A stretch of 63,277 nt of DNA, counting the filler, from Vermamoeba vermiformis (Eukaryota), in assembly GCA_045837725.1 (NCBI GenBank). It is 5 parts of 5 records of this genome, joined end to end, with 100 filler letters (N's around TTAATTAATTAA, not from the genome) between each part and the next. Parts side by side here need not be neighbours in the genome. Positions count along the whole stretch, not along the records: positions 35,363 to 48,984 come from JBEWZL010000164.1; 4 more parts are not named here. One strand, 5' to 3'. The first letter of the stretch is position 1. Each line of letters begins with the position of its first letter. The notes below the pieces were generated by a model. That model saw nothing but the letters and a program-made list of their open reading frames with translations, did not search any database and was not told where the DNA came from. Below, piece after piece: positions 31,127 to 53,485 of the stretch. Position numbers and translations under genes: made by a program.

Positions 31127-31603
31127 ATGACGGATTCACAACACCACGAATTTATTCGACGAGCAATTAAGTTAGCTGAACTCGCAGTAGAACATGGAAA
31201 TCATCCTTTTGGAGCTTTATTAGTACACAATGGCAAGATTATACTTGAAGCTGAAAACACAGTTAATTCGGATAAAGATCCGACCGGTCACGCAGAAACG
31301 AATCTGGTCCGCTTAGCCGGCAAAACCATCGCTCCAGAAGTTCTTCGGGAGTCTATACTATACACTAGTACTGAACCATGCATGATGTGCTCTGGCGGAA
31401 TGTACTGGGGCGGGATCTCGCACGTCGTGTACTGCTGTTCTGAAACTACGCTTGCTAAGTACGCCGGCGATGATTTTTTAACTCCGTGCAGAGAAATATT
31501 CGCAAAAGGCAAGGCGAGAGCGGTTAAAGTCGAAGGACCTATCTTGGAAGAGGAGGGCGCTCCGTTACACGCCAAGTACTGGCCGAATTTGAATCATCAT
31601 TGA
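31127..31603 (+). CDS. Zn-dependent nucleoside/nucleotide deaminase (guanine deaminase/TadA-like)
   Basis: PFGA, HAE, EPCMMC motifs; intronless 158 aa. Confidence 0.92.
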   Translation: MTDSQHHEFIRRAIKLAELAVEHGNHPFGALLVHNGKIILEAENTVNSDKDPTGHAETNLVRLAGKTIAPEVLRESILYTSTEPCMMCSGGMYWGGISHVVYCCSETTLAKYAGDDFLTPCREIFAKGKARAVKVEGPILEEEGAPLHAKYWPNLNHH

Positions 31604-31862
31604 AGTTGAGTGTAACGAATAAATATTATATAAAGTGATACTAGCATAATCTTAATTTAAAACAGCGACCAACGCTGAATTTGTACTCTGAAAAAAAATT
31701 CAGTCATGCTTCCTTGTCTGATCTCACATGCATGCATTCGCAGCCTTTCACTAAGTACGTAGCATAAAATGTTATGAAAAAAAAAGACATAGTACTGTAT
31801 TAATAATAAAATTTAGTAATTTATGGACGTACGTAGAACTCGTCAGGATTAACGAGCTGCTG

Positions 31863-32671
31863 TTAGTTGCAGTTCTCGTCGAATGACAAGTAGGTATTGC
31901 GGTACAACGAGGCACTAGGACCAGCAGGCACATTAAAATAGAGATGACGACCGTCGTCGAAGTCAAACGCGATCCAGAATCCTTTTGACTGAACAAAATT
32001 GTTGCCACCTCTTCTAACATATGTTCTTGAGCAATCAGTGTTGTCTAAGTACTGTAATTCCTTAGAATAATAAATATCATTCGCTGGCGAGTCGCTCCAG
32101 AAATCTGCGTAGCTGATCGAGACATTGAATTTCGGTGAACCATCATAACCTCCTCCTAAAGGCTCAAATTAGCCTAATCGTACTGTAGCGGGGTAGTTAT
32201 TATTATTAAATTACCGCTCAGGAAGAAATCATAGAGAGTTGCCCATTTGAAATCAGGCGAGCTTCGAAGACCTAACGTTGGAAACGTTCCGGATGTAGTA
32301 AACGGATAAGAAGTGTGCGTATAAGTGTCATACAGAGTAGAAGTCAATCCAGCATATCTATTTTCCTGCTCTATTAATCGTTAGCATCCCATTCGAATTC
32401 TTCTTCTTGGGGTCGATCGAATCCAAAACTTGCCTAAAAGAACCAAAATGGCGTAGAGATCGCCATCATTGAACTCCAATAGCCATCTATGTTGCTGGTT
32501 GTCCGAGACATTGAACGGATTTGAGTACTGAGGGAATAAAAATCCTTCGTTATTGTAGAAGCTGTCGTTGGTAGACGGGCCATCTGTTGGGCAGATCTGA
32601 GCGCTAACGCCGTAGAAAGCAATCAATACTATAGCGCAGATAAAATACGAGCGATGTTGAGCGATATTCAT
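31863..32671 (-). CDS. Hypothetical secreted protein
   Basis: Signal ..FICAIVLIAFYGVSAQICP; three exons ending ..SFDENCN*. Confidence 0.6.
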
Positions 32672-33179
32672 TGTCGAGCTAAGTGGATTGGGATCCAGGT
32701 TGGATTTGAACAATGACGCCAAACCGTTTATATTCTTTCAGGCACTTCTAAATCAGGTATTGTGCGCAATCTCCAACAAATGAGCTAAATTACACGGGGT
32801 TTTCCGCGATAGAGCGCCGTTTAGTTCGCAAATGCAGCACCATTTTTGTTTGATGCACCAGCAAGAGACCTCATTCCGATTAATCCTGATGACATCTATC
32901 AAAATTAACACATATTAGTCTATTTGAATATTTTATGGTAAGTAATTTCGTTTTTAAAATACAAGAGCGCGTTGCCGTGAAATTTTTGGCGAAATCCATT
33001 TTAAAAATTATCATTACCTTCTGTCCCAATCATGGTACATATTGATACGCATTACAACGAATTTTTATATAATTTTTTGGGCTTTTTTTATCGTCAGATT
33101 CTAGAGGGAGCGATAAAAAGCGGATTCGCACCTCATTTTCAGTCCAATTAATGCTGTTAACAACGCATCGTCTTATAAT

Positions 33180-34094
33180 ATGACTAACGCAAAGTATTTA
33201 GTCGTGGTGTTATTGTTATTTTGTTTGCGCGATTGTTCTTGCAACAATTCGGATCCCTGCTTGAACAATCCGAGCCCAAACTCGATTGTGCCCTTCAGAC
33301 AAGTTGTGACTACCACCTCAACCTTGTACTCACCTTATGGCGATGAAATAAGCATCTACGACAGCACTAACTGCTATTTGCTCCACATTTACTCGTTCTC
33401 GATGTATCAATATGCGTCCAGTACGTTTACAAGTCCGGACTTAATCCGGTTTTGTTGCTTTTCCTTGCTAATTTGGACTATAGGTGTGTATACGCCCCAT
33501 GCTGAGGCAAGTATCAGCGGTTATCTCCAAGACACTTGCAATAATGGCCAGCAACTTGATCTCGCTGTATTCGAATACACGAACACTCCTATATTAAACT
33601 TTGCTTCCACCTTATCAACAGTTAATGTTAGTCCGTTATTTTTACAAGGTAAACTCGCAAATACGTAACGCAATTCTTAATTAATTATTTTAGGAAGTTT
33701 ATTCAACGGATCGTTCTCATGGACCGCTAACGTGACTCTGGATGCAGCTACTTTCACGTCTAATACTAGTAATCCATCGGATGTATATCAGAAAGACGAA
33801 TTTGTTACCTTTGACAACTCGCCGTGCACGATTCGAATCCGAGCAGATTTCATTGACCGTGCATCTCTCTACTCGCCGAATATACCATTAAGAATTCGAC
33901 TCTACAACGGAACATTGCTACAGTTTACTTACCCCGCTAATATCCGCGCTTTAGCATCCAGTTCAGTCATTCAGAAATATTATCAACAATGCACGTGCGC
34001 TGAATCTTCTTCTGATGCGCAAGCCACGGCTGAAAATCAATATAGATTTACTCCTCCAACCATTGCCGGTGTTCGGACGTCGTTGGAATGTTGA
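33180..34094 (+). CDS. Hypothetical secreted protein
   Basis: Signal MTNAKYLVVVLLLFCL; exons joined by GT-AG introns; Cys-containing. Confidence 0.6.
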
Positions 34095-34408
34095 CACGTG
34101 TCATACCTAAGTGTCAAAAAGGCTCGATCTGCTTTCCAATAAATCTACGTTCAACGTCATTGAAGCATCGGTACCAAGATGCATTATTAACGAGACGCCA
34201 TTTACTTGCTAGAGAAAAAAAGAACCTCGGCCTTACACGAATCACACAAATCCGAATCACATCGAAGTTACCGGACAAATTGTCCTCAACTGCTTTGTTC
34301 CCTTGCCACAGGTACATATCTCGTCAGCTAGCTGCGGATGTATATAAAGATGTTATTTTAATAGTGTCAGACTCACTAGCGGATTTATTTGTTAAGGTAC
34401 AGCTCAGA

Positions 34409-35032
34409 TTAATTGGATGAGCAAGTGGACATCTCGATGTAGCCTTCGCTGGTCATTGAACAGGTGTCCTGCTCCACGTTGCTATTAGCCACTGGTGTTC
34501 CGGAGCAATCAGGAGTTGAATAAGTTCTCGAGCTGACGACGCCTTGATCGCAAGTTGTGATTTGAGATCCGCTAAATCCAGACGGGCCGACTTGAGGCGT
34601 GCATTGGTTAGGTTTGTATATACGCACCCAGCTCAAGTCGTCTTCACAAGTAGCGTTTAGTTGCTGGAACAACTTACGAACGCCGAAAACTCCGGTGAGA
34701 ACGTAATCAGCTCCAAAATACTTGGAATAATCTATTTGGCCTTTGATGCATAGAAGAGTGCCACCAGTAGGGTCGCAGGCGCTATTAAATGGAACTTGTT
34801 GCAAGATCTTGCATTGACTGCAGAACGGATCTCGGCAAGAATACATGGTAAACTGCTCGGCATCGCATTGGATGTACTGCCATCCAACATCGAGTAAGGC
34901 AGGAGCACATTCTCCAGGATAGAAGTAGCCAACAGTCGGATCTGTGGCATTACAGGGGACCGTCAAAACTGAATCTGCCAAACAGCCACTAATTATGACT
35001 GATAATACGAAAACAGCAATAATGCAGCGCAT
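34409..35032 (-). CDS. Secreted Cys-rich protein
   Basis: 207-aa intronless ORF, signal MRCIIAVFVLSVIISGCLA, two Cys-rich modules. Confidence 0.75.
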   Translation of the reverse strand: MRCIIAVFVLSVIISGCLADSVLTVPCNATDPTVGYFYPGECAPALLDVGWQYIQCDAEQFTMYSCRDPFCSQCKILQQVPFNSACDPTGGTLLCIKGQIDYSKYFGADYVLTGVFGVRKLFQQLNATCEDDLSWVRIYKPNQCTPQVGPSGFSGSQITTCDQGVVSSRTYSTPDCSGTPVANSNVEQDTCSMTSEGYIEMSTCSSN

Positions 35033-35262
35033 ATTGGTGTTGTTTACAGGTTATTTTGATATGATTAATGCAATCAGTCCTCTTTCTTTTATCTTTTCGC
35101 ATTTTTTCTTTTTTTCGGGATCAGATGGGACCTATTTCGTTGTATAATTTTCAATTTCGATTTTTTGTGTCCGCTATTATTTAAGCAATAACATATCATA
35201 AATAATTCATAAATAATTTATTAAATGCTTAAGCGTGGATCGCTTCAAACTCGAAAACCGCG

Positions 35263-35362: not shown

Positions 35363-35439
35363 CTTTTATAGTATATATTAGGTTACTGCAGTTTAGGGTT
35401 ATGCGTTCTACAGGACCAAAAACACCCTTGTAAATCAGA

Positions 35440-35881
35440 CTGGGGGCGTAGTCCTCAAAACTACGCCCTTGCGAGACAGAACGAGGGTGTAGTCCTCGAA
35501 ACTACACCCTTGCGAGATGGAACGAGGGTGTAGTCCTCGAAACTACGCCCTTGCCAGACGGAACGAGGGTGTAGTCCTCAAAACTACGCCCTTGCGAGAC
35601 AGAATGAGGGCGTAGTCCTCGAAACTACGCCCTTGTGAGACAGAACGAGGGTGTAGTCCTCAAAACTACGCCCTTGCCAGATGGAACGAGGGTGTAGTCC
35701 TTGAAACTACGCCCTTGCCAGATGGAACGAGGGTGTAGTCCTCAAAACTACGCCCTAGTGAGACAGAACGAGGGTGTAGTCCTCAAAACTATGCCCTTGT
35801 GAGACAGAACGAGGGTGTAGTCCTCAAAACTACGCCCTTGCCAGACGGAACGAGGGTGTAGTCCTCAAAACTACGCCCCAG
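35440..35881. repeat. Tandem array of about 11 x 41-bp units, each containing a hairpin
   Basis: Unit GAACGAGGGTGTAGTCCTC(A/G)AAACTAC(G/A)CCCTTG..AGA.. starts at 35479, 35520, 35561 and so on to 35848 (exact 41-bp period), plus a lead unit. Stem AGGGTGTAGT/ACTACACCCT, loop CCTCRAA. Confidence 0.95.
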
Positions 35882-36461
35882 CAAGAACAGATTGGGGCGC
35901 CTGTAAAATGTTGTGCAAATTGGCATGCAATATAGCATGATAATTTGCATGATAATTTGCATAATATGTCGGCACCTTCGTTTAACAGCTTTGTTTGGGA
36001 GAAATCCTCAACTACCATTGTCCTCTTGGGAAAGACGTTAAAAATCAGCGTTTACTGCCTGCACTAACAGTGTAGCCAAGAAAGACCCGCAAAGAAAAAA
36101 GAATATATTTATAGACCCAGAATACGGCTGCGAATTACTGAATTACTGCTGGTGCGCGAGTGAAGCAAGTGCGGCTATCAACGAGTCACGTGTTGTTGTT
36201 CATTAGTTTGATTAAAAAAAAAAGGATATCCGAACTATTTTTGGGTTACCAAATTTTCATGTTCTGATTTCGTAACACATGCCTGATGTCACGTTTTGTC
36301 AAGTTAAAATTGGTGCGAACGGTTGATCTACAGTTAAGCATTGATTTACAGCAGAAAGTAACGAGGCACGGTACCATAGCCGTTTCAGCGCAAGTCCTTT
36401 CGGATCAGTCAACATCGCACGTGTCAATTTTGGAAATTATGATTAAAAACTTACACAGATC

Positions 36462-36790
36462 GACCACAAGGGTCGATTTATTTTTTTATTTATGGATTGC
36501 GTTCAATTACAGTAGATAGTAACGCGCCACGGCATCAGAGCCGTTCAGCGCGAGTTATTTCGAGGATCAGAGCTGATGCGAAAATGGTGCACGGGCTATT
36601 TCGCATCAGTAATTCAACAGAACGACCACAAAGGTCGTTATATTTATTTAATGGAGATTATTGCAGCAGACAGTGACGCGCCGCGGTCGCCACGGCCATT
36701 CAGCGCGAGTTATTTCGAGGATCGACAGAGCGAATCTTCGGATTCGCAACATATCGGCTACAAGGTCGCTTTGTTTATTATTAGTAGATA
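36462..36790. repeat. Imperfect direct repeats (about 160-bp period, 2 copies plus a partial third)
   Basis: GACCACAA.GGTCG at 36462 and 36624 (CTACAAGGTCG at 36758); identical TTCAGCGCGAGTTATTTCGAGGATC at 36544 and 36699. Confidence 0.8.
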
Positions 36791-37188
36791 TTTTTTATCA
36801 ATATACGCGCCAAACGATAATCAGCGTCGTTGCAGCGCGGCTTTATCCTGGATCTCCGGAACGCCAAAAAAGGAGAAGTCACGTGTGTGGAACACGATTT
36901 AAAATTGAAACATGATTTCAATTCTACCCAATGCAACAACACAAACAACACATTTTATTAACAAACGCGCCACAAGCCCGTTTGTTGATAATATTGCAAA
37001 CCGAGTGCTCCACCCGACCACTCGATTCGCACGCTCTGCAGAGTAAATTCGCCAAATTTGCTCTACTACCCGAATTATTGCGATACATATTATTGTAATA
37101 TTCTTTAAAACAATCCGAGGTGTAATTGCGCACTTTCCGCCGAGTTCCCGATCGGAATCAGAATCAGAATCAATTTACCAAACTAATA

Positions 37189-39623
37189 ATGGTAAGAAAC
37201 AACGATTTATTAAATAATTAATTACTAATAATTATTATTTTAGGCGCAACCATTAAGCTTTACGGTCAGATCGTATATTAACTTTCTGATTTTCGCCAAG
37301 AATCGAACTCCGACAACAGATATCGACGCGTACCTCAAAGAGATATGCAACAACATAATGCGCTATCCTGCTTTTTTCCAAAAAAAGCAAGATTTGATCT
37401 TCTTCTTCTGCGTGTTTTGGTATCACCAAATGTTACCAACTCACGGGGAGAACTGTTATCCGTTGTGGTACAAAGCTTACCGTGCCAAAATCGCAGCAAC
37501 TCTGGCTATTGACGTGGATTCAGAAGCTTGGAAAGACTTCGCCCGCTTCTTTCATACTCTTCCTGCTCGTCTGGAAGCCGCGATGCGCCTGTGCCAACAA
37601 ATTACCGTGGAAAAGAAGATCAGAGACAGAGAGCAAAAAGAAGCCTATGGCGAAATTGTACACGGCGAACATTACCGTGTCTGGTGCGCGCTCCGCTATC
37701 ATTACTCGTATTGGCAGACAGACGACACTTTGCGCGCACTGCTGACCTCTGTGGAACTACAACGGCCGCAATGCGACTACGATCAACCTCTGTTCACCAA
37801 GTTTGCGTCGTTTTTGGTTTCAAGCTGGAAAATGGCATCCGGAAAAGCGCGTTCCAGTACGACCAACGAGGCACAAGTCCCAACCGGATTTGCGCTGGTA
37901 GACTTTGTCGATGGTTGTTCTGGCATTGGCCATGCTGCCTTCCACCGTGCTGCCTTCCTGACCGCTGCTGCTGGGGCTGTCTTTGGAGACACGCGCAAGC
38001 GTAAATCGGCGCATGGTGACGAGCGTGAAACAAAGAAGCAACGCTTGGAGGCCCCGGCAGTAATTCCTGAGGATGAAAGCGTTATCATCGATAACCCTAG
38101 CCCACGAGTCCCAACACCTCCTCAGGTGGTAAGTCTTGTAAATCCGCCATTACCAAATTTCTAACATTTGCTCATCAGGATTCGCCTCCGATATCCATAA
38201 GACCTTCGCATTCCTCGGATGAAGAAGTGGAACCGCCACAAGCGGAGCCCGAGTCGGAACTTCCGAACGAGTCGATCAACCAAGATTCGAACACAAATCT
38301 CTTGAAAGTGGCTAGTCCAAGGACTACCCAACCAACGGAGCAAGTAAGAAACAATTTACAATGATGCTCAGCTAACATATTTATTCAGCAACAAAGCAAG
38401 ATTCTGCTCATCGAGGATTTGAAGCATCTCAGGGAACTCGGCACCCGAACAAACGAGCGCAATTTCGAGATTATAAAGTGCAGCAACTTTGCGTGCACGT
38501 TGGAGGATTTCGAGGCGCTAAGGACTATGCCCACCTTCTGGAGCCTCGTTCTAGATTCGATGCGCCTGTCTGCCGAATTTGCCAGTAATAAGCCTTCCAA
38601 ATTCTGCAAAGAGGGGTAGGTAATTATTTTTGCAAGTTGTAGTTGATTAATCTTCCCTCCTAAGGTTGCGGAGGATAAAAGTCTTGGCCATCCGCCATCC
38701 CAATCGAGGTTTGCTCAATGCAATCGGACCGCATTGCAGCAATTTAGGGGCTGTAATATTGCGTTGGAGCTCTGCGACAAGCTTTGGGCTGGACTCTTTT
38801 CTGCTCAAAAACTTGTGTTTCATCCGGATTTGCCCCGATCAATACCTGCAGAACTTCTACAGCTTCCTGGGAAGAGGTGTTCAGCCAACTTTATCGAACA
38901 TTCTTGGCTATTTTTTCAAGTACACAGACTTCCTTATTGGGCTGCAGATTCCGTTACCTTGTTCCCCGACCGAATCTCCCACGATCAGCTTGTCAGGACT
39001 TGAAGTGCCCCAGCATTTTACATACTTGGCGCTATTCAGCTTTGGAAAGCATGCGACATTTGATTTGCAGTCTGTCTACCTCTCTACCATTGGACATCTG
39101 GCCCTGATCAACATTTTCATTGATCCCTTTATTCCTCCGAGGGACTATGACGAAAGTCACTGGTATTTTATGGAACGAGGACCGCGAATATACTTGGGAG
39201 GATCTGATAAGGAAACGACGTTGAAGATTTTTGAAGAGATAATTGATATTCGCCCGTAAGTTATTTAAAATATCTTAACCCGCAAACCTGATATTGATTA
39301 TTAAACTCAGGTTTGCTTATGCGAACAATGCGCTAGTTCCGCGCTTGCTTTACCCGCTCCCTCTTTTCCAAAGCATCTGGTTGGAAGATGTTACCCAACA
39401 CCTAAGGCCGAACCATCCTAGAAGCACATCGCACAAATACTTAGCGGCCGCCCAGGACCGGTTTTTTCAAGCTTTCTTTCCAGCTGAGGTTAGCCAGGAT
39501 CTCAACTCGGAAATACTGAAATACTGCATCCCAAAGCACGACGCCAACTTCTTCACAGTCCCTCTGGCAGCTTCAATGGCAAGCGTGCAACACAAATTCG
39601 AGCTGTTTGCTTACCGTGCGTGA
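37189..39623 (+). CDS. Element gene 1: unknown nuclear protein with degenerate LRR-like C-terminal half
   Basis: ATG-only first exon, then in-frame exons covering ORFs 37358, 38419, 38666 and 39294; bipartite NLS-like RKRK..TKKQRL. Confidence 0.65.
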
Positions 39624-39845
39624 GCACTTGCCGCCAAATTTTTTGGATGTGCTCACCCGCCCCGCCAAAATTTTTGGGTGTGTGCACTCAGCCCGCCAAA
39701 ACTCACGTGCACTGGACCAATAAAATCACGACGACAGGTTTAAAAACAAATCGCTGCTGTTTCCCGTTCGTCTATTGTTTGACACAACCACAACTGCAAC
39801 TGTGCACGTTACAACTAGTTTATCGCACTCACCACTGCTGCTAAA

Positions 39846-42356
39846 ATGGTAAGTAAGCAACCACGTTTTACGTGAGCTGCAATAGTCTTTCGGCTAGAAT
39901 ACTTCATAATAATGTTGGTATCCAGTCCCGAAGAGACTATATGGACTTGGTGCGAAGCTACCATTCTCAACGTTCCGGAGAGTCCCTTGGCAACCACGAA
40001 CAAATGGAAACTGAGGAGTATGAGAAGGTAAGGACTAGAGCACCGAAAAATTGTCATCTGGTTTCACATCCGAATTTAACCACACAATTTCAGAGCAGTG
40101 CTTCTGTACGTGTTAACCTGTCACGTAAGGCAAAGGATGAGTTTAATTCATGGAGTTATTATGGTACGTTAGGATGCTAATTTTCATTTATTTTTTGGAT
40201 GCGGATTTAACATCCGTTTTTAGAGTCGGATGACGAACCGACGGATGCTCCTTTGCTGAACTTTACCGAACCCTCCGACAACAAAGCTGCCAAAAGAAAA
40301 TATTGGCTCAGCAACCCTGAGATGGCAGCCCATGATTGGGACGATCTTCAACAAACGGACGTTCCCTCTGACGGAGACCTCGACTTCGTAGAGAACGATG
40401 AGCAACCTCTCCCTAACGACGAAGACTTCATGGATATTGATAAGAACGACGAAGAGGATGCTTACAATGATGAACCCTCAAGTTCTGAGTGCGACTCAAG
40501 ATCCAAGGATGCTGACGACGCCGACTTCAACTCCAAGGCTGACAACGACTCCAAGGCCAATGCTGACGATGCCGACTTCAACTCCAAGGATGGCAACGAC
40601 TCCAAAACCAAGGCCGACAATGACGCCGACTTCAACTCCAAGCATGGCAACGAGTCCAAGGCCAATGCTGGCGACGACTCCAAGGCCAATGCTGACAACA
40701 CCGACTTCAATGGCAACGACTCCAAGGCCAATGCTGGCGACGACTCCAAGGCCAATGCTGATGATAATGCTGACTCCAAGGATGGTGATGACTCCAAGGC
40801 CAATGCTGGCGACGGCTCCAAGGCCAACGCTGACGACTCTAGTGACTCCAACTCCAACAATGGCGACGACTCTAATGCCAGCGCTGACGACTCCAGCGAC
40901 TCCAGTGACTCCAGCGACTCCAGCGACTCCAGTGACTCCAGCGACTCCAACTCCAACAATGGCGACAATTCCAATACCCTCAAAGGTGGTGCCAACACCA
41001 AGAGCACAAAGTCAAAGCCCTTGCGCCCGTCGCTATCCAACGAAGTATCTCATTCAAAGAAAGGCTCGCTTATAACACTGTCATCTCCGCATAGCAAGAA
41101 GCTGAAATCGGTTCGATTCAATTTGACGGCAACGAGGCACGCAAAGGTACGCGATCGCAAGCGCTCCTCAAAGTTACTGAAAAAAAGTAAGTTAGTACTA
41201 AAAGTAATTAATGTGGCTAATTGGTCGTGCAGGTGAATCCTTGCGCTTAAAGTCACGTCCTGACCCGAAGACAAAGACTAAGTCCAGTAGCTGCCCAGGC
41301 AAGTAATAAAAACGAACCTATTGTCATATGCTAATGTACTTGTAAAGGCAGTACCACTAACAGCATCAAGAAATTGCTGGAAGCTCAAAGCTCGCAACAG
41401 GCCAAAGACAAACTCATTCATAAATACATCCGGGGTCTTTGTCAGAACTTGGATGTGTTAAGTGAGCTTGGCTTAGACTTCTTGATTAAGGGCGAGGGCA
41501 AGTTCATTGGGTTTGGCTATCAAAAAAAGAAGTACAAACTAAAACTTGCACGCTCATCGACAAAAGCTTCTGCTCGGGAGGGTAGTTGTGCCACGACTGC
41601 TATCAGAAGTACCGAAAGCGAAAAAGGTAATATATTTTATTCGGAGCATTCCAAAATAATATTGTTGCTAATTACATAACAGAGCCGTCTACCCGGGTTC
41701 GAAAACTTCTCCACGAATGCCGTTTTCTTAAAGAGACATACGATAAATGCTCCGACCTCAACAACGCTGGATTGCCTGCCGTTGCAACGACACCTGGGCA
41801 CGAAGTGCTTAGCTACTTTGTTTCTGGTGCGTTAGATGTCGAGCTTGATGGCAATTTGGATGCCGTCACGAGCTCCATCAACTCACAGCTGCAAGTCGTC
41901 TCCAAACTCGAGTTGCGTGTCGTCGAGCTCACGGTTCTTATCAAATTGAAGACGTTCTACATTGGCGCACTTGTAGAGAAGTTGTCGGACTACTTTCGCG
42001 ATAGATCGCGCGCTGAAAATACGCAAGCGATGCAAGTGGAGGTGAACGATAATATTTTCAAGGTGTTACAACAGTGCACTGCTTCAAATTTGGTTGCTGC
42101 AATGCCGGACGATCCGAACATTAAGAAGTTGGCAAGCAACGCATCCAAGCCAAACTTGCAACGCGACTTTTTCCGTCAATGGAAATTTCGGTTAAGCCGA
42201 TTTTTTAATATCTGCTCAATTGAAAAAAAGTTGCTCTTTACGGATCTGTCACTCACGCAAATTGTGCGGACATTTCCAGATCCAAATGCAACTATGATTC
42301 TATTTGATTATATTCGCACACACTCAGACGAATACCCCGATTGGCTAACGAGTTAA
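39846..42356 (+). CDS. Element gene 2: acidic D/S/N-repeat protein with basic region and helical C-terminal domain
   Basis: ATG-only first exon; exons join ORFs 40253, 41374 and 41772 in frame; one GC-AG intron (41299-41347). Confidence 0.65.
40500..40970 (+). repeat. Coding minisatellite (DSKANADD / DSS repeats)
   Basis: GACTCCAAGGCCAATGCT and GACTCCAG(C/T) units inside gene 2. Confidence 0.85.
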
Positions 42357-42547
42357 TTTAGTTTCGCGACATCACTAACTTGTACCAACAAACTGATAAG
42401 CCAAGTACGTATATAACACTTATTTATTAATTATACTGACTTTCGTTGCAAGGCACTGCTTTTTCCCCTTTCAAACTCAACTTTGATCTTCGTGAATTTG
42501 GTTCGTCTGTCTACGACCACAACGACGAGTCAGATAAAGAGAATCAA

Positions 42548-45500
42548 ATGGAACTCGATTTGTATCCTGCTGGTATGTTACCTTAGATTAACAATGGATT
42601 GCTCCTAATATTTTTTAGAATTTTGCGGAACGGATCTGGTTGAGGATCCAGAACTGAGGCACCTTGAAGAGGAGGACATTAATATGCTAACTGGTAGGTT
42701 TCGGTCGACGATAATATAAATATTACTAATACTAATATTGATATTAGAAAATTGGTTGGACTCTACCAAACCGACTGGCCTTTGCTCGTTGGCGCAACTT
42801 ACGGCTGCGCTGGAGTCGACTCTAAACAGTAAGTGACAAATTGACAAATTTGCAATGCCTGACAATGTTCAATAATAGCTCCAGCCTCAAAACGAGCGAA
42901 TTCGAGGCAATCATCAGCTCGCCAATCACCAGTTGCGGAGTCTCCTTCGAAATGGCTTCGCAACTCACCGAGCCCACGAGTTGCAACCAAAAAGCCGTCA
43001 AACTCTTCACCGAGGGGAGCTTTATCGCGACCTTCGACTCCCACAGTAGTCGGTGGAGCTGCATCTAAGCGGCGGTCACCAGCACTCTCAATGTCAAAGC
43101 GCTCTCCTGCTAGAACGCCAAGTCCCATAGAATCTCCTTGCTTATCTCCTGACTCTATTGGAACTCCTGTTGGATCGCCTATTGGATCGCCTATTGGCTC
43201 TCCAAGAGTTTCAAGGCGCGTTGCCGAAGAAGATTTTGCGGAAGAGTTCTCGGAGGAGTTCTATTCGCTGGTCAGAGATTGGCTTGCAGATGGACCGGAG
43301 GCTAGCTTACCTGACTTACTACGCTTCAATAAGTTGACCGATGCCGAAAAGTCTGCCTTTTACACCTACGCTGAACGGTAAGTACTTTCACGATTAATCT
43401 AAGAGGACAAATTACTGATCAGTAACGATAGTGATTTCATTGACCACAGCAGCACGCGCAAGAAGTACAAGCCCGAGTACCTGGATCGCATACGCTCTGC
43501 ACTTGAGAATGGCAGAGCTAAAGTTAGTGTCTACACGCAGCATTTGCTGACCAATGCAAAGATAATTGGTAGCGACGCCGATTTTGGTGCCGGCTTTGAG
43601 AAGAATATCGCTTGGATGACTTCGCAACACTACTTCGGTCCGCGCTACTCTCTCAAATCTGACAGTGACATGCAAATAACAAGCAGCATCGACAATGACT
43701 TCATTGGCTTCTTGTTTGAAGACCTAACATTTATTAAGGTCCTATTTGATCTTGTTTATTGTCCCGATTTTAGCCCAGCCGCAAGGTTATCCAATTGCAA
43801 GATGACTTACGCGGGCAAATCTTTGCATTCAGTACCTAACATCTCTCTCGGGTAAGACTCAGGTTTCTTTGTTAATAGGGTTTCATATGCTAATGTTTAA
43901 TTAATAGGCTTATCAACAACACTCTCTTACTGTATGTGGTCTTTCCGTTTTGTAAAGACGATCGCACGGCTGCCGTTAATAGGTTTTTTAAGAGTTGCAT
44001 CTATCAAGGTAAACCTCATCGCATTTTCAGCCAAAACCAATTCTAATTATTCTATTTAAGGCGTATACAACTCTAAACAACGACAAGTATCGCCGCTAGC
44101 ATCCTCCTACGAGGTGGGTCGTACTGTTTCCGTACCCGGATCGACTTTTGCTGTTAAACCCGACACATTGAAATGCATCGGCAGAGCCATTGCCGAACTT
44201 GTGCGAGAAGACGAGACGTAAGATCAATTATACAATTAATTACTAGACGGGACTAACAATAACTACAGAATGCGACCAGTATTTGTCGCGCAATACTTTG
44301 GTCAAAAAGAACCTATTGACCGGGCACGTGTCAAGGAAATCTACGAAGAGCTCTGCGAATCGTTCGACATGGATAGGGTGTACAACCATCGCCATGGAGC
44401 TAAAGCTTGGTTTTTCTTCGACATTGCCGAGGATTTTGCGTATGTACTACCAAGCGACTCGTTTTATCTTATTAATAACTTGTAGATGCAATGACCCCGA
44501 TGATATAACTTTATTCTTCACGCGAGACATTACGCATCTTCTTAAAGACCGTCAGCGATCTCCTTTCGCGAGATTGATGGTGCGAAACTCGACAAGAACT
44601 GTACGAAAGCGCTCTGAGGATCAGTCAAAGGATTATAAGAGTTGTGCGTAAGTAAATTCATAAATGATAACCAAAATGGCTAACGGTGCATATTTAGCTG
44701 TACAGAGTTTCCAAACTATGGTATTGGCTCGTTTGCAAGTCTAACGCTCCAGTGGAAAAATCAGTACTCGCTTTTACACAAAATTAAAGTTTACGACAAG
44801 TCGAGCGAGGTGTTTCGTCACAACTCTCCATTCGCTGACATATGGCACGCAGCACTTTCGTTTCCGTTCGAAAGCGTAAAAACGTTGTTCTCGCATGCAC
44901 CAGCACTTTCAAAGAAGCTAGAAAACCGGCTGCAAAGCGAGGCTGAACAAGTTCATACCCGCTCTCACCTCAAACGCGCGGAGGCCCTCTATTCTAAAGT
45001 ACTTCCGGACAAGGCTTACGGACCGCGAGTAGAGCTCACTTTGCAAAATCCAACTCTGGATGAGCTCGAGACAGCGTACGACACGCTGGTAGAGTTTGCG
45101 GAGGCGGTCATTTGCCTTTTTAACATAACAAAGGCAATGTATCAATGCAATGTGGCTCCGAAAGAGATACTGAGGTGCTGCCCGCTTCAAGCAGTTCAGA
45201 CTGAAACATTGTGCGCCATCCCTCGCATGTTTACGCGGAGCATTGCCAATTATTTTTACTCGCTGCTCGAACATATTATATCCGGTAAGTCATAATCTTT
45301 GTTACCAAGCTTTACCTTGCTAATGAATATGCAGCTAAATACTTGCAAGCATTCGCTTACAACGATCATTTCGTCCGTCTTGCATTTTTACTGCAGGACC
45401 AGTTAACTTTCATTTGGTCTGGTTCCGTTCAGTCGCTACTTCACCCCACTCTATTCACGCGGTACAAGCAACTCGAAGCAGTACTCGACTACGGACATTT

Positions 45501-46737
45501 TTACGTGAGCAAAGACTTGCTTGTGCCGAGCCTGAACTTTTCCAAGGCAAGATTATATTCAATTTCTCGTGCAAATGATGCCGAAGATGATGAAGTAGAA
45601 TTGCTCGACGTTGGCCTACCGCGTCAATTCATTTACAAGATATTCCCTGATTCCAACGATCAGGATACTCTCAACGAAATCTTAACGAACGTGCGGTTGT
45701 GCCTCTGTTCGTCAGATGGCATAGTATCCCCAAGAGACAAATCAATTAGTTCGATTATGGCTGCCAACCTGGTCAACTCCTTGTTTGCCGCTTTGTTTAG
45801 CGCAGCAAACATCGTAACATCGGCGAAACAGACGCAGTTCATCAAGTTGTTACAAGGAGAAGATGAAACAACGATTCAATCGTTTCTCGAACGCGCTTAC
45901 TTGCAGCAGGAGAATTTTGCCGTTCCAATCAAGGTACGGAGATCTAAACTGCGATTTGTAATTACTAACTCACTCATTTTAGGTATATTTCAAAGACCGG
46001 TTGTTGAGCGTATCGGACCTTATCGAGATGGCATTTCCGCGAGAGCCAAAAGAGCAACTCTTTGGTCGCACACCTGTGCGTGTCAATTTTGCTAAGCATT
46101 GGGTTCTGGCAACGAAGACTGTAATAGAGCATCTTAACGATCGTTTGAAGATTGGATCGTTAAAAGCGGCGCGCATTGTGCAACATGTTCGAAACTATAC
46201 CCACGATATTTTAACTGTGGATACAATCGTTTCGAAAATGCGCGGCCTACTTGCAGGTTTGAATCTGCGATTCTTCCCTGTTTTCTCATCGAACACTTTC
46301 TGGGGCTACGATGGCAAATTCAAATTTGCTCAAATATTGCCAAGCTCACGAACTCGCGTTCTTCAAATAGTCAATGGCAAGCCGGTCATGACCGAGTCCA
46401 AGCAGATCATCGACAATGAAGCTAAACTTCGCGTAAGTTAGTCCGTACAGTAGTAGATGTATTACTAAGCTCTTCTTAGCTTCTAAGGCACATATGCTTG
46501 AACTCCAAGCTCGTTGACGGTGTAAAAAGCCGCACCGAACTGCTCGCGCACTGTACGTACCATGCGTTCAAAAGGAGTGACTTAAAAGTCAAAAAGCCAG
46601 AGTACCACAACACTGTTAGAGAGTACGTGTTTGCGACAGGTTTATTCCCTTGGGTTACCCCGCGATCTCAGATCTTGCCCGCGCCAGATTCGGTTTGGTT
46701 AGAAAAGTATCGCGAGATTTTTGGCAAAGAAAATTAG
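42548..46737 (+). CDS. Element gene 3: large (>1000 aa) protein with Rep_trans-like motif triad
   Basis: About 13 exons joined in frame by GT-AG introns; Ser/Pro-rich N-terminus; motifs FFDIAED (44420), KIKVYDKSSE (Tyr codon 44792), YGPRVELTL (Arg codon 45026). The gene model is well supported; the function is inferred. Confidence 0.6.
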
Positions 46738-47029
46738 AATAGTTTGTTGTAACACAGCTGTTGTAGTAAACACCCATCATTAAACACACCTCCGCAGTAA
46801 GTTCTTTAAACCATCCACTTTTGATCGGATCCGCAACGTTTCCGATTTTTCGAAATAAACGCTTCGGATATTGCGTTCTATTTTTTAATAAAGAAATTTA
46901 ATAATTAAAGCAGTACTACTCGCCAAATCTTTTTGCGAATCCAAATCTAAATTCAATTAATTTAATATTGTTATTAAAGGGAAGAACACACATTTATACC
47001 ACGGTATTTGAAGTATAAAATTAGTCATA

Positions 47030-48557
47030 ATGACCCGGTAAGTTTTACGTTTCCAGATCGTGAAATATTTTTGTAAATCTGCCCGCTAATATTTAAAGGT
47101 AATTTATTCGCTAACTAATGAACGGTTGCAGAAACAAGCGAAGAGGCAACAATCAGAAGCCTAAAAAATTAGAGAAAGACCGTCACGTCACCGAAGATCA
47201 GGGATCAAAGCGTCAAGCCCCGGCAAAAGTCACGAAAGGAAAGGCCGATGAAACAAAGGAGGTCAATGCGCGTAAGAAGGGTGCAGTGGATTCGCGCCAG
47301 AGCAAAACCCAAGATCAGATTAAGAGCACAAAGGTGACGACTAGATCGCGAGCAAAGTCATCCACAACGAAGGACAACAGCAAGACGAAAGCGAGTCCGA
47401 AGAAAAAGCAGTCGACAAAGGCGAAAGAATCGGACAGTGCTTCGTCCAGCGAAGACAAGTTACATGATTCTCGCCCGAATCAGAAGAAGTCCAATACGAA
47501 CCAGGACGAAAGTAGCGAGAGCGACGGTGACGGCGAGGAGAATAATGAAAATAATGAAGACAATGAAAGAAAAGACAACAAAAAGCACCGCGATACTGAA
47601 AGCGATGTTCAGAGCGACGATAGCAACGTCGACAGAGAGAGCGACGAGATAGCAAATAACAATGAAGGTGGTGACATCAGTGAGGCGAACGACGACATCG
47701 AAAATAATATTGAAGAAGTTGTTGAAGATGCAGATGCCAAAGGCAAGTATTTACGATTTTTATATCTCGTACTTATAGTCGGTAGATAAAAAACGAAAGC
47801 GCAATCCTCAACTTTCCGAATTGTGGCCTCGTAAAAAGGCTAGAATTGACGTTCATGCTCGCGAGGACCTTCATGATTGGAAGCCACTCTCTACTGACAA
47901 CGACGGTATGTTTGGTGGCCTCGTACTATTGTTAATATTTAATTTTAGCAAAGTCTCGCACTCAGAACTTGACAACAACAATGCAGTATATTTGGGCCAA
48001 TGGAGTGTATCATAACAGCGTCTTCAATGAGGATTCGAAGAGTTCTCGTGGTACTTTTGCTCCAATCCTGCTGTATCACTATATTTGTACGTTAAACTAC
48101 TATTCGAATTACGTCAGTATTGCTAACGATTGATGAAAGTGGTAAACGCACTAATGTGCGGCACAGTGTGTGACAAGTCAGCTGTTGAGGAATTAAGTTG
48201 TGCGCTCTCTAACCAGCGCAAAGTGCATGATATTGTGGCTTTGGATATAACGGCAACGGCGTTGTGCACCGAGACAGGAATGCAAGCAAAAACAATTGCT
48301 GGAGCTTTTGATAAGCTCATTTATTTAGAAATGGTTGCAAGGGTTGAGTCACGTGGGTATGTAAAACATTTGCATTCAGCAAGGCTTGTTCTAATGGTAT
48401 AATTAGTGTTTTGCTACTTCTACCTCCTCCTCTTCCTGCCAAAGTTCTCAGTATCAATACGAATCTTGGTCTTGGTGAACAGTTGTTAGATGCAATTAAG
48501 AAGAATGCATTATCAAAGGAAGAGAAAAAACAATTGTTAAAGCAGTTGTTAAAGTAG
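47030..48557 (+). CDS. Element gene 4: basic/acidic low-complexity nuclear protein with small C-terminal domain
   Basis: MTR|NKRRGNNQK..., K-rich then D/E-rich tracts, NLS-like KKRKR..RKKAR, GC-AG intron 47743-47785; ends about 210 bp from the telomere. Confidence 0.62.
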
Positions 48558-48764
48558 GGCAAATAAAAGGCTAATTTCCTATTAATATTGTTTTTGTTTG
48601 AAATTGAAAGATGGCACTTGCAAAATATTTGTTGGGCATTTTACAAAGGGAATTCAAGTGTACGAAGTAAAAGCACAAAAAAATTCGGTGTTTCTAACAC
48701 AGACAATGAAAGCATAATATCTTGGTAACTCAACTGCAAAAAAATAGTGTGGAGTGGTAACAAT

Positions 48765-48984
48765 GGTTAGGGTTAGGGTTAGGGTTAGGGTTAGGGTTAG
48801 GGTTAGGGTTAGGGTTAGGGTTAGGGTTAGGGTTAGGGTTAGGGTTAGGGTTAGGGTTAGGGTTAGGGTTAGGGTTAGGGTTAGGGTTAGGGTTAGGGTT
48901 AGGGTTAGGGTTAGGGTTAGGGTTAGGGTTAGGGTTAGGGTTAGGGTTAGGGTTAGGGTTAGGGTTAGGGTTGGGGTTAGGGTT
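48765..48984 (+). repeat. Telomeric repeat (TTAGGG)n, about 36 units, at contig end
   Basis: TTAGGG tract running to the contig end with the G-rich strand 5'->3' outward; one TTGGGG variant at 48971. Confidence 0.98.
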
Positions 48985-49084: not shown

Positions 49085-49583
49085 TAAATAAACAATTCAG
49101 ATCTGGTTGGATCTTGTACTGGCATGATCGACGGAAACATTTTATGACAGAGGTTAAATCGTAATGCTTATGCGTATCAAGATATTCTGGAAGATTCTAA
49201 AGCTAGTTTTTCGGTACACAAAACACAAACGTCCCTCCAAAGCTGAGAAATAATGCTGAAATGTTTTGACCGAAAATATCTGGGGAAACGACAAAACGGC
49301 ATCGATGCGCGAAAAACATTCAGTTCTTTCTACAAGCACAACAAAGTACCTCAGTGCTCTATCATTTAAGTTACTGGTAAGTTCTTGAAGAAACAAATAT
49401 TTAATTGCGGTTGGATCATGTTTAAATTTGTCAATTATTCGATTATAATCTCGATTGACTAAAATATGATTATTAATATCATATTTACCAATAGCATAAC
49501 ACTTAATTTTTATTAGATTTTACCATTTTGATAATTATTTTTTTGATAGATCCAGTGACACCTGCTCTCTGCAATATTTGATA

Positions 49584-51029
49584 ATGTCCCTCTTATCGAC
49601 AAATACGTCCTTAATATTAATTGGAACCGCCTTGGCTAGTCTGGTCGTCAGATCTTCTCCCAGACTGAGTGCGCGATATTTTTATTATAGATCGTTGGCC
49701 CAAGCTTCCTTCTTCTACGGGCTCAACACTATCAAGCGCAAGATATGCAATATTGTCGGCGTACCCTTGCCTCCTTACGGCGATACGACCTCCATCTCGC
49801 CAAAGTGGATGCAGAAAATTCTTGAAGACAATTACAAAACGAAGCTTCCAGAGTTGCTGTCAGTTGAAATCACCAGTGATGTAATTGCTGGCGGTTTTAG
49901 CGGCAAGATGACGCGCATCAAGCTGCATTGGTCCTCTCCGCCCCCTGCTGAACTCGACATCCCGTCGCAAATGATCATCAAATCAGCGCAGAATCAAGTC
50001 CGACGCTTGCATGCCTCACTCATGCTCGGTACTCCACGCGAGGCACTGTTCTCGCACGAGTACGGTCAAAACAATCGCGATCCAGTGTTGAATGTCATGC
50101 CGCGTGTCATTTACGCCAATGGTTCGTGGCTGTCAGGCGAGTACGTGACGATCATGGAAGACTTGTCTTTGAAGAGTGCATTCCACGGCGGAATTATGCT
50201 CGGCAACCAGTGCTTTGGCGCTGTGCCCGTGCCCGACAACATCAAGCAAGATCCACTTGTTGTCGTCGAAACAATCTTCATGCAAACTGCTGACATTCAT
50301 GCCAAGTACTGGCGCGACGAGACATTGCTCAAGTTCAACTGGATGAAAAATGTCGCGTGGCTGCAAGGCCGTGAACGAGCCAGCTGGGAGATGGCAATGA
50401 TCAACATGCGCCACAAGTTCAACAACGTGTTGCAGGCCATCAAGAGCGGCAAGACGAAAGTGCCTTGGTCCGATCACATGATCAGCACGATCAACAACGC
50501 GTTTGCTAACACCAACTGGCAGACGTTCAGATCCAAACTGAACTTGTCGGATCCGACCACGCCCTTCACGCTGTGCCACGGAGATTTCCACGCGAGCAAC
50601 ACGTTGTGGTGCCCTGCCACTGACAAGGACCCGCAGCCTCGTGCCTATCTCATTGACTGGTCTGAAGTGGGTGTCTTCTGTCCCTTCACAGAACTCGCGC
50701 AATTCGTGGTCAGTCACATTTCCGTCGCTGATCGCCGTGCCCATGAGCGCGAGATATTTGAGCGCTATTATCAACGCCTAGTTGCCAAGGGTGTTGACAG
50801 CAAAGTGTTCCCATTGGAGAGCTGCTGGGAGAAGTACAAACTCGGTGGCATGGAGCGCTGGTTGCAGATGTTAGTGCTCTTGGCCAATATTAGCATCGAT
50901 TTCCCTCAAGCCCTGTCCGATGATCATATTGCTTGGTTTTACAATCAAGTGGCAACTTTTGTTGAAGATCACGGCACCGCGCAGAATTTGAAGTCGCTCT
51001 CCTTCATGTCTGCTTATTGTGTCGCTTAA
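49584..51029 (+). CDS. Ecdysteroid-kinase-like / APH-family phosphotransferase
   Basis: IIK, REALF, MEDL, TLCHGDFHASN, LIDW motifs; intronless. Confidence 0.85.
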   Translation: MSLLSTNTSLILIGTALASLVVRSSPRLSARYFYYRSLAQASFFYGLNTIKRKICNIVGVPLPPYGDTTSISPKWMQKILEDNYKTKLPELLSVEITSDVIAGGFSGKMTRIKLHWSSPPPAELDIPSQMIIKSAQNQVRRLHASLMLGTPREALFSHEYGQNNRDPVLNVMPRVIYANGSWLSGEYVTIMEDLSLKSAFHGGIMLGNQCFGAVPVPDNIKQDPLVVVETIFMQTADIHAKYWRDETLLKFNWMKNVAWLQGRERASWEMAMINMRHKFNNVLQAIKSGKTKVPWSDHMISTINNAFANTNWQTFRSKLNLSDPTTPFTLCHGDFHASNTLWCPATDKDPQPRAYLIDWSEVGVFCPFTELAQFVVSHISVADRRAHEREIFERYYQRLVAKGVDSKVFPLESCWEKYKLGGMERWLQMLVLLANISIDFPQALSDDHIAWFYNQVATFVEDHGTAQNLKSLSFMSAYCVA

Positions 51030-51337
51030 TCGACTATCAAATAAAAAACGAAGCTTCACAATACCACTGTCCTTTCAAATATGTGCTAACAGATCTTTTT
51101 TGACCAACCAAACTTCATTCAGTGAAAGACCATTTTCCATTTTCGCAACTAATTGAACACTACCACTTGTAAGTTCTCAAGCCTTAGTGTTACAACTTCA
51201 TTGATAAACACAATAATAAGGTATCCATATTAATACTTTGCGTAAGTTACAATTAACGTTACGAATACTACTTTGAGTATTCAGTTTCCAATAATAAATA
51301 AATAATTGGATAATTTTTAACACTATTAGCACTAGAT

Positions 51338-52756
51338 ATGGAGCGACAATTAAATGAAGATCTGCATCCGCACGTTGTAATAATTGGAGCAGGTCCTGTA
51401 GGCCTATGGACGGCGATTCAGACAAAAATATTATTGCCTGGCGCATCAATAGTAATTATAGAAAAATATAGAGAGTATAAACGAAGCCATGTACTGCGAC
51501 TAAACAAAATGTCGATGATACGAGCTCCTGCCCACTCAGATCTGCAGAAATTAATTGATAGAATTCCAAGTGTGGTCCGCACAAATGTATTAGAAGATGA
51601 ATTATTAACTCTAGCAAAAAAGCTCGACATTACGATAGTTTACAAAAATATTACGGATGTACGCAAAGAAATTCAAGAAATGTTTCCTGATTGCATGGCA
51701 GTAGTTGGAGCAGATGGATCTCATTCAATAACGCGTGAACAAATATTCGGAGGAGCAATGAGCGTCAAAGAAACGTTAAAACAAATAGTTGAAATCAAGT
51801 ACGAAGTTAACGGACCAACGAGGAAATTGAATTTTGTAACAGAGTTCTATCCAACGCAAAAATTGATCGAGTTTATTGCTGAAGAAAGTGTTGGCAAGAT
51901 TCGCGATGGCAAGACACCTGTCACTGTTCGATTTATGGTTCCAAAAAAGATCTACGAACAGATGAAAGACGCAACTTTTAAGAACCCGTTCTACGTGCCC
52001 ACGCACCGCGATAGAATACCAGAGAAGCTATTAGAGGCTATTACATTATGGATGAACGTACGACGTCATTGTACGAAAGAAGAACGAGTGGCTGGATCTG
52101 AAAAAATTTCAGCGCTGCACCTCGATGTTTATCAATCCGACAAAGTGAGCTATGACGACAAAGAGCATCATCGTGCATATTTCTTAGTAGGAGACGCCGC
52201 CTTCGGTGTACCATTCTTTAGAGCACTGAATAATGGCTTATTGTGTGGCAGCAAACTAGCATTCTGTCTGAGCGATCTGTTGAGCGACCATCTCAAAACT
52301 TACACGCCTAAGTCATTCATGGGCAAATTGAAAGTGGGTGTGTTGAAAGCGATGAACACCGTGCACAACTTTGTCAATGCTGGCGTGCTGAATGCGTACA
52401 GTATCTACGTCGCGAGTCTTGCCATGACCGAGATTGCCACCGCTCGGACCAAGAGTGGTGCGTTGTTTGCAGCCACTCTTATGAACAAAGTGAACGGAGC
52501 TGTGCCCTGGCAAGTGAATGTGTGGCCAAAAGAGAAAGAAAAAATGTTCTTGACGACCGATCCTAACTTCAAACCACCTGTCATCGTGCAAAAAGAAACA
52601 ACAGCGAATGAACACAGTGACGCAGAAGTGGATCATAACGCGTGGCAAGGACCAGAAGGAGACTCTCAAGAGGAAGAAGAGAACAATACGAACGAAAAAG
52701 ATCTGGCTGCACAGTTCGAGGGTATGTCTTTGGCAAGTAAAGAAGGCCACCAATAG
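51338..52756 (+). CDS. FAD-dependent oxidoreductase/monooxygenase-like protein
   Basis: GAGPVG Rossmann motif, VGADGSHS, LVGDAA; intronless 472 aa. Confidence 0.82.
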   Translation: MERQLNEDLHPHVVIIGAGPVGLWTAIQTKILLPGASIVIIEKYREYKRSHVLRLNKMSMIRAPAHSDLQKLIDRIPSVVRTNVLEDELLTLAKKLDITIVYKNITDVRKEIQEMFPDCMAVVGADGSHSITREQIFGGAMSVKETLKQIVEIKYEVNGPTRKLNFVTEFYPTQKLIEFIAEESVGKIRDGKTPVTVRFMVPKKIYEQMKDATFKNPFYVPTHRDRIPEKLLEAITLWMNVRRHCTKEERVAGSEKISALHLDVYQSDKVSYDDKEHHRAYFLVGDAAFGVPFFRALNNGLLCGSKLAFCLSDLLSDHLKTYTPKSFMGKLKVGVLKAMNTVHNFVNAGVLNAYSIYVASLAMTEIATARTKSGALFAATLMNKVNGAVPWQVNVWPKEKEKMFLTTDPNFKPPVIVQKETTANEHSDAEVDHNAWQGPEGDSQEEEENNTNEKDLAAQFEGMSLASKEGHQ

Positions 52757-53485
52757 GTTTACATGTTTAAACTATTTCCACATCAATCTAATATGCTCTA
52801 ATTGGTCCAATGCGCGATTAATGTTGACGATACCCTCTTTGAGTTTTTTCTGGTTTGTAGGCATTGCTCGCTCTCTTCTAACAAGAACTTGACAGTGTTC
52901 TCGTCGGTTAGTTTATCAAGCTCTGATCCACTTCGGAAACTTCGTCCGATAGTTTCAAGAAGACCGTATTTAGCACTACTTGAACGTTCTTCTCCTTCTG
53001 TCGTCTAATGCCAGGCGGCCTAACTGTAAGTAAGCTGGCAATTTTGCGGTGGCATAGTACACAGCTTGCTGAAGAGATCAGGCTCTTCATCCCCATTCAG
53101 AGTGACGAGCGTTTTGAATAAGAACTCTAATTAACCCATCCATTTATTCCGTTGATAGAATTTCAAGATGTGACTTGGGTGTCTCGATGAGATCAGAAGT
53201 TTAGAGAGGGCAACGAAACAAACCCTAGCACCTTTCTTTGCTAAGCTGGCTGCAATATTAGATTGACGTAATTTTCTGAACTGATCTCGGAAAAATCCGG
53301 AAATTCTCCGAGCGCAATATCCACATGTCAACTTGATAGTTACGTGTTTCAATAGCAATAGAGGTTTTGTAAGCACATCGAAATATTCGTCAAGATACTC
53401 ACAAGTACATTAATTTTAGTTGTTTAACCGAGCAAAAGATTTTGTTAAAATTCAATTTTGTTTTCTTACCGGTTGAAATGTTTTA

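Follow-up and report, generated by a model that had tools for sequence, protein, structure and literature searches.

A telomere-adjacent block of four spliced genes, three of them with diverged copies, in Vermamoeba vermiformis

Gene content and layout of a chromosome end

The DNA analyzed here, a stretch of 63,277 bases from Vermamoeba vermiformis (assembly GCA_045837725.1; hereafter the window), is composed of five contigs (1-29223, 29324-35262, 35363-48984, 49085-53485, and 53586-63277) joined through N44-TTAATTAATTAA-N44 spacers. The unit under study is exactly the third contig, in which a 41-bp tandem array is followed by degenerate ~150-bp repeats, four spliced genes on the + strand (designated A to D), and a TTAGGG tract. 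This order of hairpin array, direct repeats, four packed + strand spliced genes, and telomere had been claimed in a preliminary description of the contig, and it was recovered by Tandem Repeats Finder (TRF), alignment, and gene modeling. The main features are as follows:

35444-35894, + strand: 41-bp tandem array, 11 units by eye, almost reaching the left edge of the contig
36345-36900, + strand: four degenerate direct repeats of ~110-155 nt each (alignment, 63% mean column identity)
37189-39623, + strand: gene A, 6 exons, 728 amino acids
39846-42356, + strand: gene B, 7 exons, 719 amino acids
42548-46737, + strand: gene C, 13 exons (12 introns), 1198 amino acids
47030-48557, + strand: gene D, 6 exons, about 394 amino acids
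48765-48984, + strand: telomere, 36.7 copies of TTAGGG (TRF), at the 3' end of the contig

The contig is a real chromosome end. The G-rich strand of the terminal tract runs 5' to 3' to the contig edge, as it does at true chromosome termini, and the earlier claim of a telomere cap holds. The 12-mer TTAGGGTTAGGG gave 33 matches against 0.01 expected, and no CCCTAA runs were found elsewhere in the 63,277 bases. The tract begins 207 nt past the stop codon of gene D, in agreement with the ~210 bp given in the preliminary description, and no telomere-associated repeat was found between that stop codon and the first TTAGGG. At the opposite end of the contig, a telomere-like sequence of 1.5 units, TTAGGGTTA, is located at 35393-35401, 30 nt from the left edge, and its orientation matches that of the terminal tract. 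A second copy is located at 9512-9520. These two non-telomeric matches are not a significant excess over the 0.4 expected in the window, and the copy at 35393 might be the remnant of an internal telomere tract.

Gene models were built by hand with the help of a small search across GT..AG introns. The 28 introns of genes A-D are all of the GT..AG type and are 43-106 nt long (median, 50 nt), with a mean GC content of 0.32. Donor sites are mostly GTAAGT-like and branch sites mostly CTAAC-like, and in this combination with short length the introns resemble those of fungi. All four genes are intact, and the spacers between them measure 222 nt (A-B), 191 nt (B-C), and 292 nt (C-D). The junction at 47680/47786 in gene D, which implies a 106-nt intron, is uncertain and was adopted in the sole model that keeps the frame open. 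Genes A and B each have an intron right behind the start codon (ATG followed directly by GTAAG; 37189-37243 and 39846-39925, respectively), and the first intron of gene D follows 8 coding bases (47030-47131). The composition of the genes is host-like, with nothing foreign: G+C content at third codon positions is 0.48-0.57 for genes A-D and 0.38-0.62 for five recognizable genes on the other contigs, and the codon-usage correlation between genes A-D and those five genes (0.55-0.74) is not below that among the five themselves (0.40-0.56).

Over 35900-48700, the sequence was compared with Logan contigs of four runs: X1, which is probably the source sample; X3, an aquifer metagenome; and the RNA runs X8 and X10. 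X1 contigs, which come from the independent Logan assembly, tile 35900-48651 with 0 differences except for one 3-nt gap. Neither DNA nor protein similarity was detected between the unit and the other four contigs of the window, the tRNA scan returned 0 genes, and a search for terminal repeats of the unit found neither inverted nor direct ones.

Copies and relatives of genes A, B, and C

Word depth in X1 decreases in steps toward the telomere, from 48.3 at 35900-36200 through 35.3 to 31.5 over gene A, 29.7 and 28.2 over gene B, 26.9 over the 5' part of gene C, and 19.5 over the 3' part of gene C together with gene D. Amplification was not evident over the genes, where the depth is flat (19.5-31.5) and similar to that of the paralogous contigs (~21-23 each). 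The depth check proposed in the preliminary description therefore gave no sign of amplification, tandem arrays, or circles.

Further copies were nevertheless present in the same sample. In exon 7 of gene B, the other letter at position 42167 (C>G) is carried by three X1 contigs with a summed depth of 63/91, and that at position 42209 (T>C) by two X1 contigs. The three contigs with the other letter at 42167 imply at least three further B copies in the sample, each at about single-copy depth (63/3). The change at 42167 corresponds to D161E of B exon 7, and E is found at this position in the database relatives P0015, P0016, and P0018 alike (listed below). A second copy of part of gene C exon 10 was found on a 422-nt X1 contig that is ~90% identical to 44848-45267 and has a depth of 23.2, compared with 19.5 for the unit's own contig there. 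The two differ at 41 positions; among the 35 listed, 26 are third codon positions and 6 change the amino acid, and this third-position bias indicates purifying selection on the second copy. The unit is thus not unique: genes A, B, and C all have diverged copies, and several of these come from one sample. The autonomy proposed earlier is not supported, given the flat depth and the lack of an enzyme match described below.

In the aquifer run X3, pieces matching the proximal 7 kb with 100% identity extended up to ~43158, and the 13 bins beyond 43159 were empty, a pattern to be read with the proviso that contigs cannot show absence. The fall in X1 depth and the X3 pattern together hint at heterogeneity of this chromosome end.

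Homologue searches covered genes A, B, and C. A word-based search with single exons returned the following relatives, given with percent identity:

A exon 2: P0013, 63%, one NCBI contig of 6680 nt
A exon 2: P0014, 58%, Logan
B exon 7: P0015, 85%, NCBI, 4006 nt
B exon 7: P0016, 89%, one NCBI contig of 6680 nt
B exon 7: P0018, 78%, Logan, 6 contigs
B exon 7: P0019, 44%, JGI, 'hypothetical protein'
C exon 5: P0020, 88%, NCBI and Logan, 4020 nt
C exon 5: P0021, 76%, NCBI, 4198 nt
C exon 5: P0022, 72%, Logan, 7 contigs

The relatives of A (P0013) and B (P0016) have equal contig sizes and are probably on one and the same 6680-nt contig, in which case the A-B linkage would be kept elsewhere. For gene C, HMMER was used to search exon 10 against 1.84 billion representatives. 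The 11 proteins retrieved (E 1e-73 to 3e-6, 25-65% identity) are open reading frame (ORF) fragments of 73-332 amino acids from unannotated eukaryotic DNA, with no annotated full-length protein among them. A search with alignment A3 also identified a metagenome locus from a different source (L001; 1629 nt, without flanks) that is 39-48% identical to residues 560-1040 of protein C. The alignment of L001 to protein C is interrupted at residues 762-771 and 951-973, near the exon 10/11 and 11/12 boundaries, and an additional break is peculiar to L001. Two intron positions common to gene C and L001 at this level of identity are typical of an old cellular gene family. No relatives of the unit were found in four scans of viral contigs, in collections poor in eukaryotic viruses, or in two scans of prokaryote genomes. 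As judged from sequence, A, B, and C are uncharacterized, conserved, lineage-restricted eukaryotic protein families with diverged copies, and they are named in no library.

Predicted proteins and proximal repeats

Protein A has a conserved Cys/His-rich N-terminal domain and a polar linker (residues 249-361) containing RKRKSAHGDERETKKQR. Within the linker, residues 252-268 resemble a bipartite nuclear localization signal (NLS), and protein D has a second such cluster at residues 187-205 (KKRKR-x10-RKKAR); both match general consensus patterns, which we take to be indicative of an NLS. By eye only, the C-terminal half of protein A (38389-39255) shows periodic L/C/N residues like those of RNI-type leucine-rich repeats, and no leucine-rich repeat model of Pfam gave a match. 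Protein B contains an acidic, D/S/N-rich low-complexity tract of 330 residues (96-428), basic clusters, and a conserved helical C-terminal domain encoded by exon 7 (all-helical in an AlphaFold2 model with a predicted local distance difference test score, pLDDT, of 56.8). In protein C, an SP-rich polar N terminus (residues 54-179) precedes ~1000 conserved amino acids with many invariant acidic residues; those of exon 5 in alignment A6 are D51, D53, D90, D92, E99, D100, and D109. The first 209 residues of protein D are low-complexity sequence that is at first basic and then acidic, and they are followed by a small C-terminal domain. These sequence features suggest that proteins A-D are probably nuclear.

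The preliminary description had left the four genes unassigned to host families, and this was borne out. Searches and folds were run exon by exon on unspliced translations, which limits their sensitivity. None of the 16 stop-to-stop ORF pieces had a Pfam-A match in hmmscan at the curated cut-off, where the rows below gathering were DUF6125, ROQ, FAD_binding_1, Mannosyl_trans4, and HOOK_N (E 0.0004-0.098); none of 14 database homologues matched Pfam, and none of 12 exons matched PHROGs. As far as Pfam covers them, no helicase, reverse transcriptase, transposase, tyrosine recombinase, integrase, pPolB, or RepHel was identified in A-D. A Rep_trans-type nicking initiator, which had been suggested for the unit, was likewise not recovered: PF02486 matched 0 of the 16 ORF pieces at E <= 0.1 and 0 of the 14 homologues at E <= 0.05, the motif scan of proteins A-D revealed neither Walker A nor CxxC motifs, and the only HxH (HRH at C residue 496) has a non-hydrophobic middle residue and is therefore non-canonical for HUH enzymes. 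The fold check proposed for the proteins did not yield an assignment either. Profile searches of PDB with alignments A3, A4, and A6 gave a best E value of 0.53, gene C exon 11 had no usable match in the ESM Atlas, and AlphaFold2 models were of low confidence both for protein B and for gene C exon 10 (pLDDT 49.4 from 12 sequences). A trehalose-phosphatase exon of another contig matched only a mixture of taxa in the ESM Atlas.

The 41-bp array on the proximal side of the genes was delimited by TRF at 35444-35878 (period 41, 10.6 copies, 90% matches, score 688). Every unit contains a 9-bp inverted repeat (GGGYGTAGT/ACTAYRCCC) capable of forming a hairpin, and the RNA fold of two units has an energy of -34.9 kcal/mol (z = -4.5 vs shuffles). 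Among ten full units, 11 of the 41 columns are variable, and 10 of these 11 are inside six CpG dinucleotides of the inferred ancestor. CpG sites account for 33 of the 34 individual differences, and C>T or G>A changes for 29. The ancestral unit was inferred by reading C/T as C and G/A as G; the clustering in CpG columns is independent of that assumption. Variation confined almost wholly to CpG is a signature of cytosine-methylation decay, and the sequence pattern suggests that the array is a satellite that is or was methylated. A conserved origin, one component of the module proposed in the preliminary description, gains no support from it.

The ~150-bp repeats are of a different kind. Each unit begins with a 5' stem-loop in which an outer CGCGC/GCGCG pair is followed by an inner stem that varies between units with pairing kept; a variable middle hairpin comes next, and then a 3' hairpin with a T-run. 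The predicted fold of unit 2 is significant (z = -6.0 vs shuffles) and those of the other three units are not. Word depth in X1 reaches 889 in bin 36327-36753 and 2479 at position 36477, compared with about 20-31 over the genes, and the repeat bins have dozens of joints and loose ends into other X1 contigs. The joined contigs retain short conserved modules (about 36455-36482, from 36664, and 36805-36839), and the AT-rich sequence between the modules is unrelated. Judged by the high word depth and the many joints, the family to which these four units belong has on the order of 100 members in the source sample. This family was not found in the other four contigs of the window. Rfam gave no match at the gathering threshold anywhere in the window, and at E <= 5 on 35363-37250 it gave 5 rows far below threshold, which were taken as chance. 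The RNA runs X8 and X10, which carry the same species label, contributed 5 and 17 partly fitting reads, respectively, all of which fell in bins of the ~150-bp repeats and none in gene bins; there being no housekeeping control, nothing firm follows on expression or on presence in that strain. The family could be a small-RNA gene family, an element resembling short interspersed elements or miniature inverted-repeat transposable elements, or a satellite. A high-copy repeat with conserved stem-loop modules and a variable middle hairpin is an unexplained feature and of interest by itself.

Origin of the telomeric gene block

Collectively, these results are interpreted, with a probability of roughly 0.5, as a duplicated, diverging subtelomeric gene block that has been spread through recombination among chromosome ends. 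In this reading, the last 13.6 kb of a chromosome arm would carry four co-oriented host-type genes for probable nuclear proteins. New copies would most likely be passive by-products of recombination between ends or of repair in which one end is copied from another (ectopic recombination or break-induced replication), and purifying selection would act on them as they diverge. The sequences proximal to the genes, namely the 41-bp array and the ~150-bp repeats, would be repetitive, probably methylated DNA of the heterochromatin type and not an origin. Canonical introns, conserved intron positions, host codon usage, purifying selection, and flat depth all argue for host-type duplicated genes kept by selection, and the tests for autonomy were negative or uninformative throughout. 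The other copies would then also reside at chromosome ends, and recombination would be the process that spread them.

Subtelomeres in the strict sense, as defined in an excerpt of PMC8381367, are near termini and duplicated at multiple ends, and they harbor lineage-specific, divergent genes; the same excerpt places tandem repeats distally and genes proximally in the classical arrangement. The unit lies next to the telomere, and diverged copies of A, B, and C exist that may lie at other ends. The closest parallels are subtelomeric duplicons and gene families (human WASH blocks, Candida albicans TLO, and the contingency families of fungi and protists), which share with the unit telomere-adjacent lineage-restricted genes, diverged copies, and probable block duplication. 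The unit differs from these duplicons in having four different genes per block instead of one family, and the end position of its copies is presumed. It further differs in that its proteins look nuclear and not surface-exposed or secreted, and in that its tandem repeats are proximal and not distal. If the unit is a duplicon, it would be a further example of chromosome ends as nurseries of lineage-specific genes, with mainly descriptive value.

Several points weigh against a duplicated subtelomeric block. The telomeric position of the other A, B, and C copies is an extrapolation from this one end, the homologue evidence for a block comes from A, B, and C and not from D, and the A-B linkage on a second contig depends solely on two equal sizes of 6680 nt. 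The array and repeats are proximal to the genes, which is the reverse of the classical subtelomere and is the arrangement of yeast Y' elements. X1 depth drops steadily from 48 to 19.5 toward the telomere without explanation, and 'single copy' here means equality with paralogous contigs and not with a genome baseline from a housekeeping stretch. Diversity is unusually high in the C family, whose 11 clusters (50% level) come entirely from unannotated fragments, and this also fits a proliferating element. Since all four proteins are without a recognizable family, gene C may conceal an enzyme.

A less probable account, and on the whole an unlikely one, is that genes A-D are ordinary lineage-specific host genes that are terminal by chance, for example through a break healed by telomerase past gene D, with their paralogues dispersed. 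The host-like codon usage and introns, the intron positions common with a distant homologue, and the flat depth agree with this, as does the short distance of 207 nt from the last stop codon to the telomere with no telomere-associated repeat between. The lack of X3 pieces distal of 43159 could in turn mean a strain-variable end, within the limit that contigs cannot show absence. What speaks for block duplication over independent families is that three of the four neighbors are multi-copy and that A and B are probably linked again; the satellite array and the high-copy repeat directly proximal to the genes are a further point against a chance location.

Improbable, and lower in rank again, is an autonomous selfish element, a broadened version of the proposal in the preliminary description, in which gene C or another gene encodes a new enzyme that acts on the hairpin or direct repeats and copies the unit to other ends, the remaining products being accessory nuclear or chromatin proteins. 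Its more specific form, an undescribed family of four-gene subtelomeric elements in the order A-B-C-D with C as a new DNA-processing enzyme and the ~150-bp repeats or the 41-bp array as cis sites, is similarly doubtful. Several observations lean in this direction: the four genes run in one direction with spacers of 191-292 nt, the unit has hairpin-forming and structured repeats, its gene families occur as multiple diverged copies under purifying selection and are known from unannotated fragments only, and invariant acidic residues such as those of gene C exon 5 are frequent in catalytic cores. These are countered by the absence of any Rep_trans, HUH, helicase, reverse transcriptase, integrase, or transposase match (Pfam, 0/16 and 0/14; PHROGs, 0/12), of a Walker A motif, and of any HxH other than the non-canonical HRH. 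They are also countered by the absence of depth amplification and terminal repeats, by the 12 introns of gene C, two of them in conserved positions, by the host-like composition, and by the CpG decay that accounts for the variation of the array.

A known analogue of such an element is Y' of Saccharomyces, which occurs as near-identical copies, often in tandem, at several chromosome ends and encodes a helicase. Like Y', the unit is a multi-kilobase coding segment between internal repeats and the terminal telomere tract and is present in more than one copy. In contrast to Y', its extra copies are at least 10% diverged in DNA and its depth is flat, its proteins have no helicase signature (no Walker A and no Pfam match), and the only hint of an internal telomere tract is the non-significant TTAGGGTTA at 35393. 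Should the same four-gene order recur at many ends with defined borders, the unit would be a Y'-like element with wholly new proteins, and gene C would be a candidate new enzyme.

Athena/Terminons and HeT-A/TART are multi-ORF units attached to telomere repeats. Excerpts of PMC8381367 and PMC7367193 describe MoTeR as a multi-ORF telomere-targeting retroelement that is also attached to telomere repeats. Compared with these retroelements, the unit is without a reverse transcriptase on this contig, is transcribed toward the telomere, which is the opposite direction, and has many spliceosomal introns. Telomere-linked RecQ helicase (TLH) genes are, according to an excerpt of PMC1635262, the most terminal genes at TTAGGG ends in filamentous fungi and fission yeast. 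Genes A-D share this terminal position at a TTAGGG end and differ from TLH, as characterized there, in that proteins A-D have no helicase domain. With rolling-circle initiators of the Rep_trans type (PF02486), the unit has in common hairpin-forming repeats nearby and nothing more, and it differs in the lack of a Pfam match. DNA transposons, Starship, Maverick, and Helitron elements are set apart by domains that, as far as Pfam covers them, are absent from the unit, which also has no terminal repeats.

It is very improbable that the contig is an artifact or non-chromosomal (a chimera, a contaminant, or a telomere-capped linear extrachromosomal or viral molecule), a view to which the fragmented assembly, the left contig end within a repeat, the dissimilarity of the other contigs of the window, and low word shares in unrelated metagenomes (water, synthetic, and canine) might lend some weight, but which conflicts with the tiling of 35900-48651 by independent X1 contigs (0 differences apart from the 3-nt gap), with introns and codon usage that match the host contigs, with a depth equal to that of the paralogous contigs, and with the four viral and two prokaryote scans, which found no relatives.

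Two minor features were recorded beside those that bear on the duplicated block. In the A-B spacer, TRF identified a 31-bp repeat of 2.3 copies (39631-39701) that starts 8 nt past the stop codon of gene A and includes the palindrome CCAAAAATTTTTGG; a terminator, a promoter, or a factor-binding site are possible functions. On the fourth contig, an intron-free ORF of 509 amino acids (49500-51029) has EcKL/DUF1679/APH kinase-like matches and a second one of 480 amino acids (51314-52756) has a weak FAD_binding_3 match. These two long intron-free ORFs contrast with the intron-dense genes A-D.

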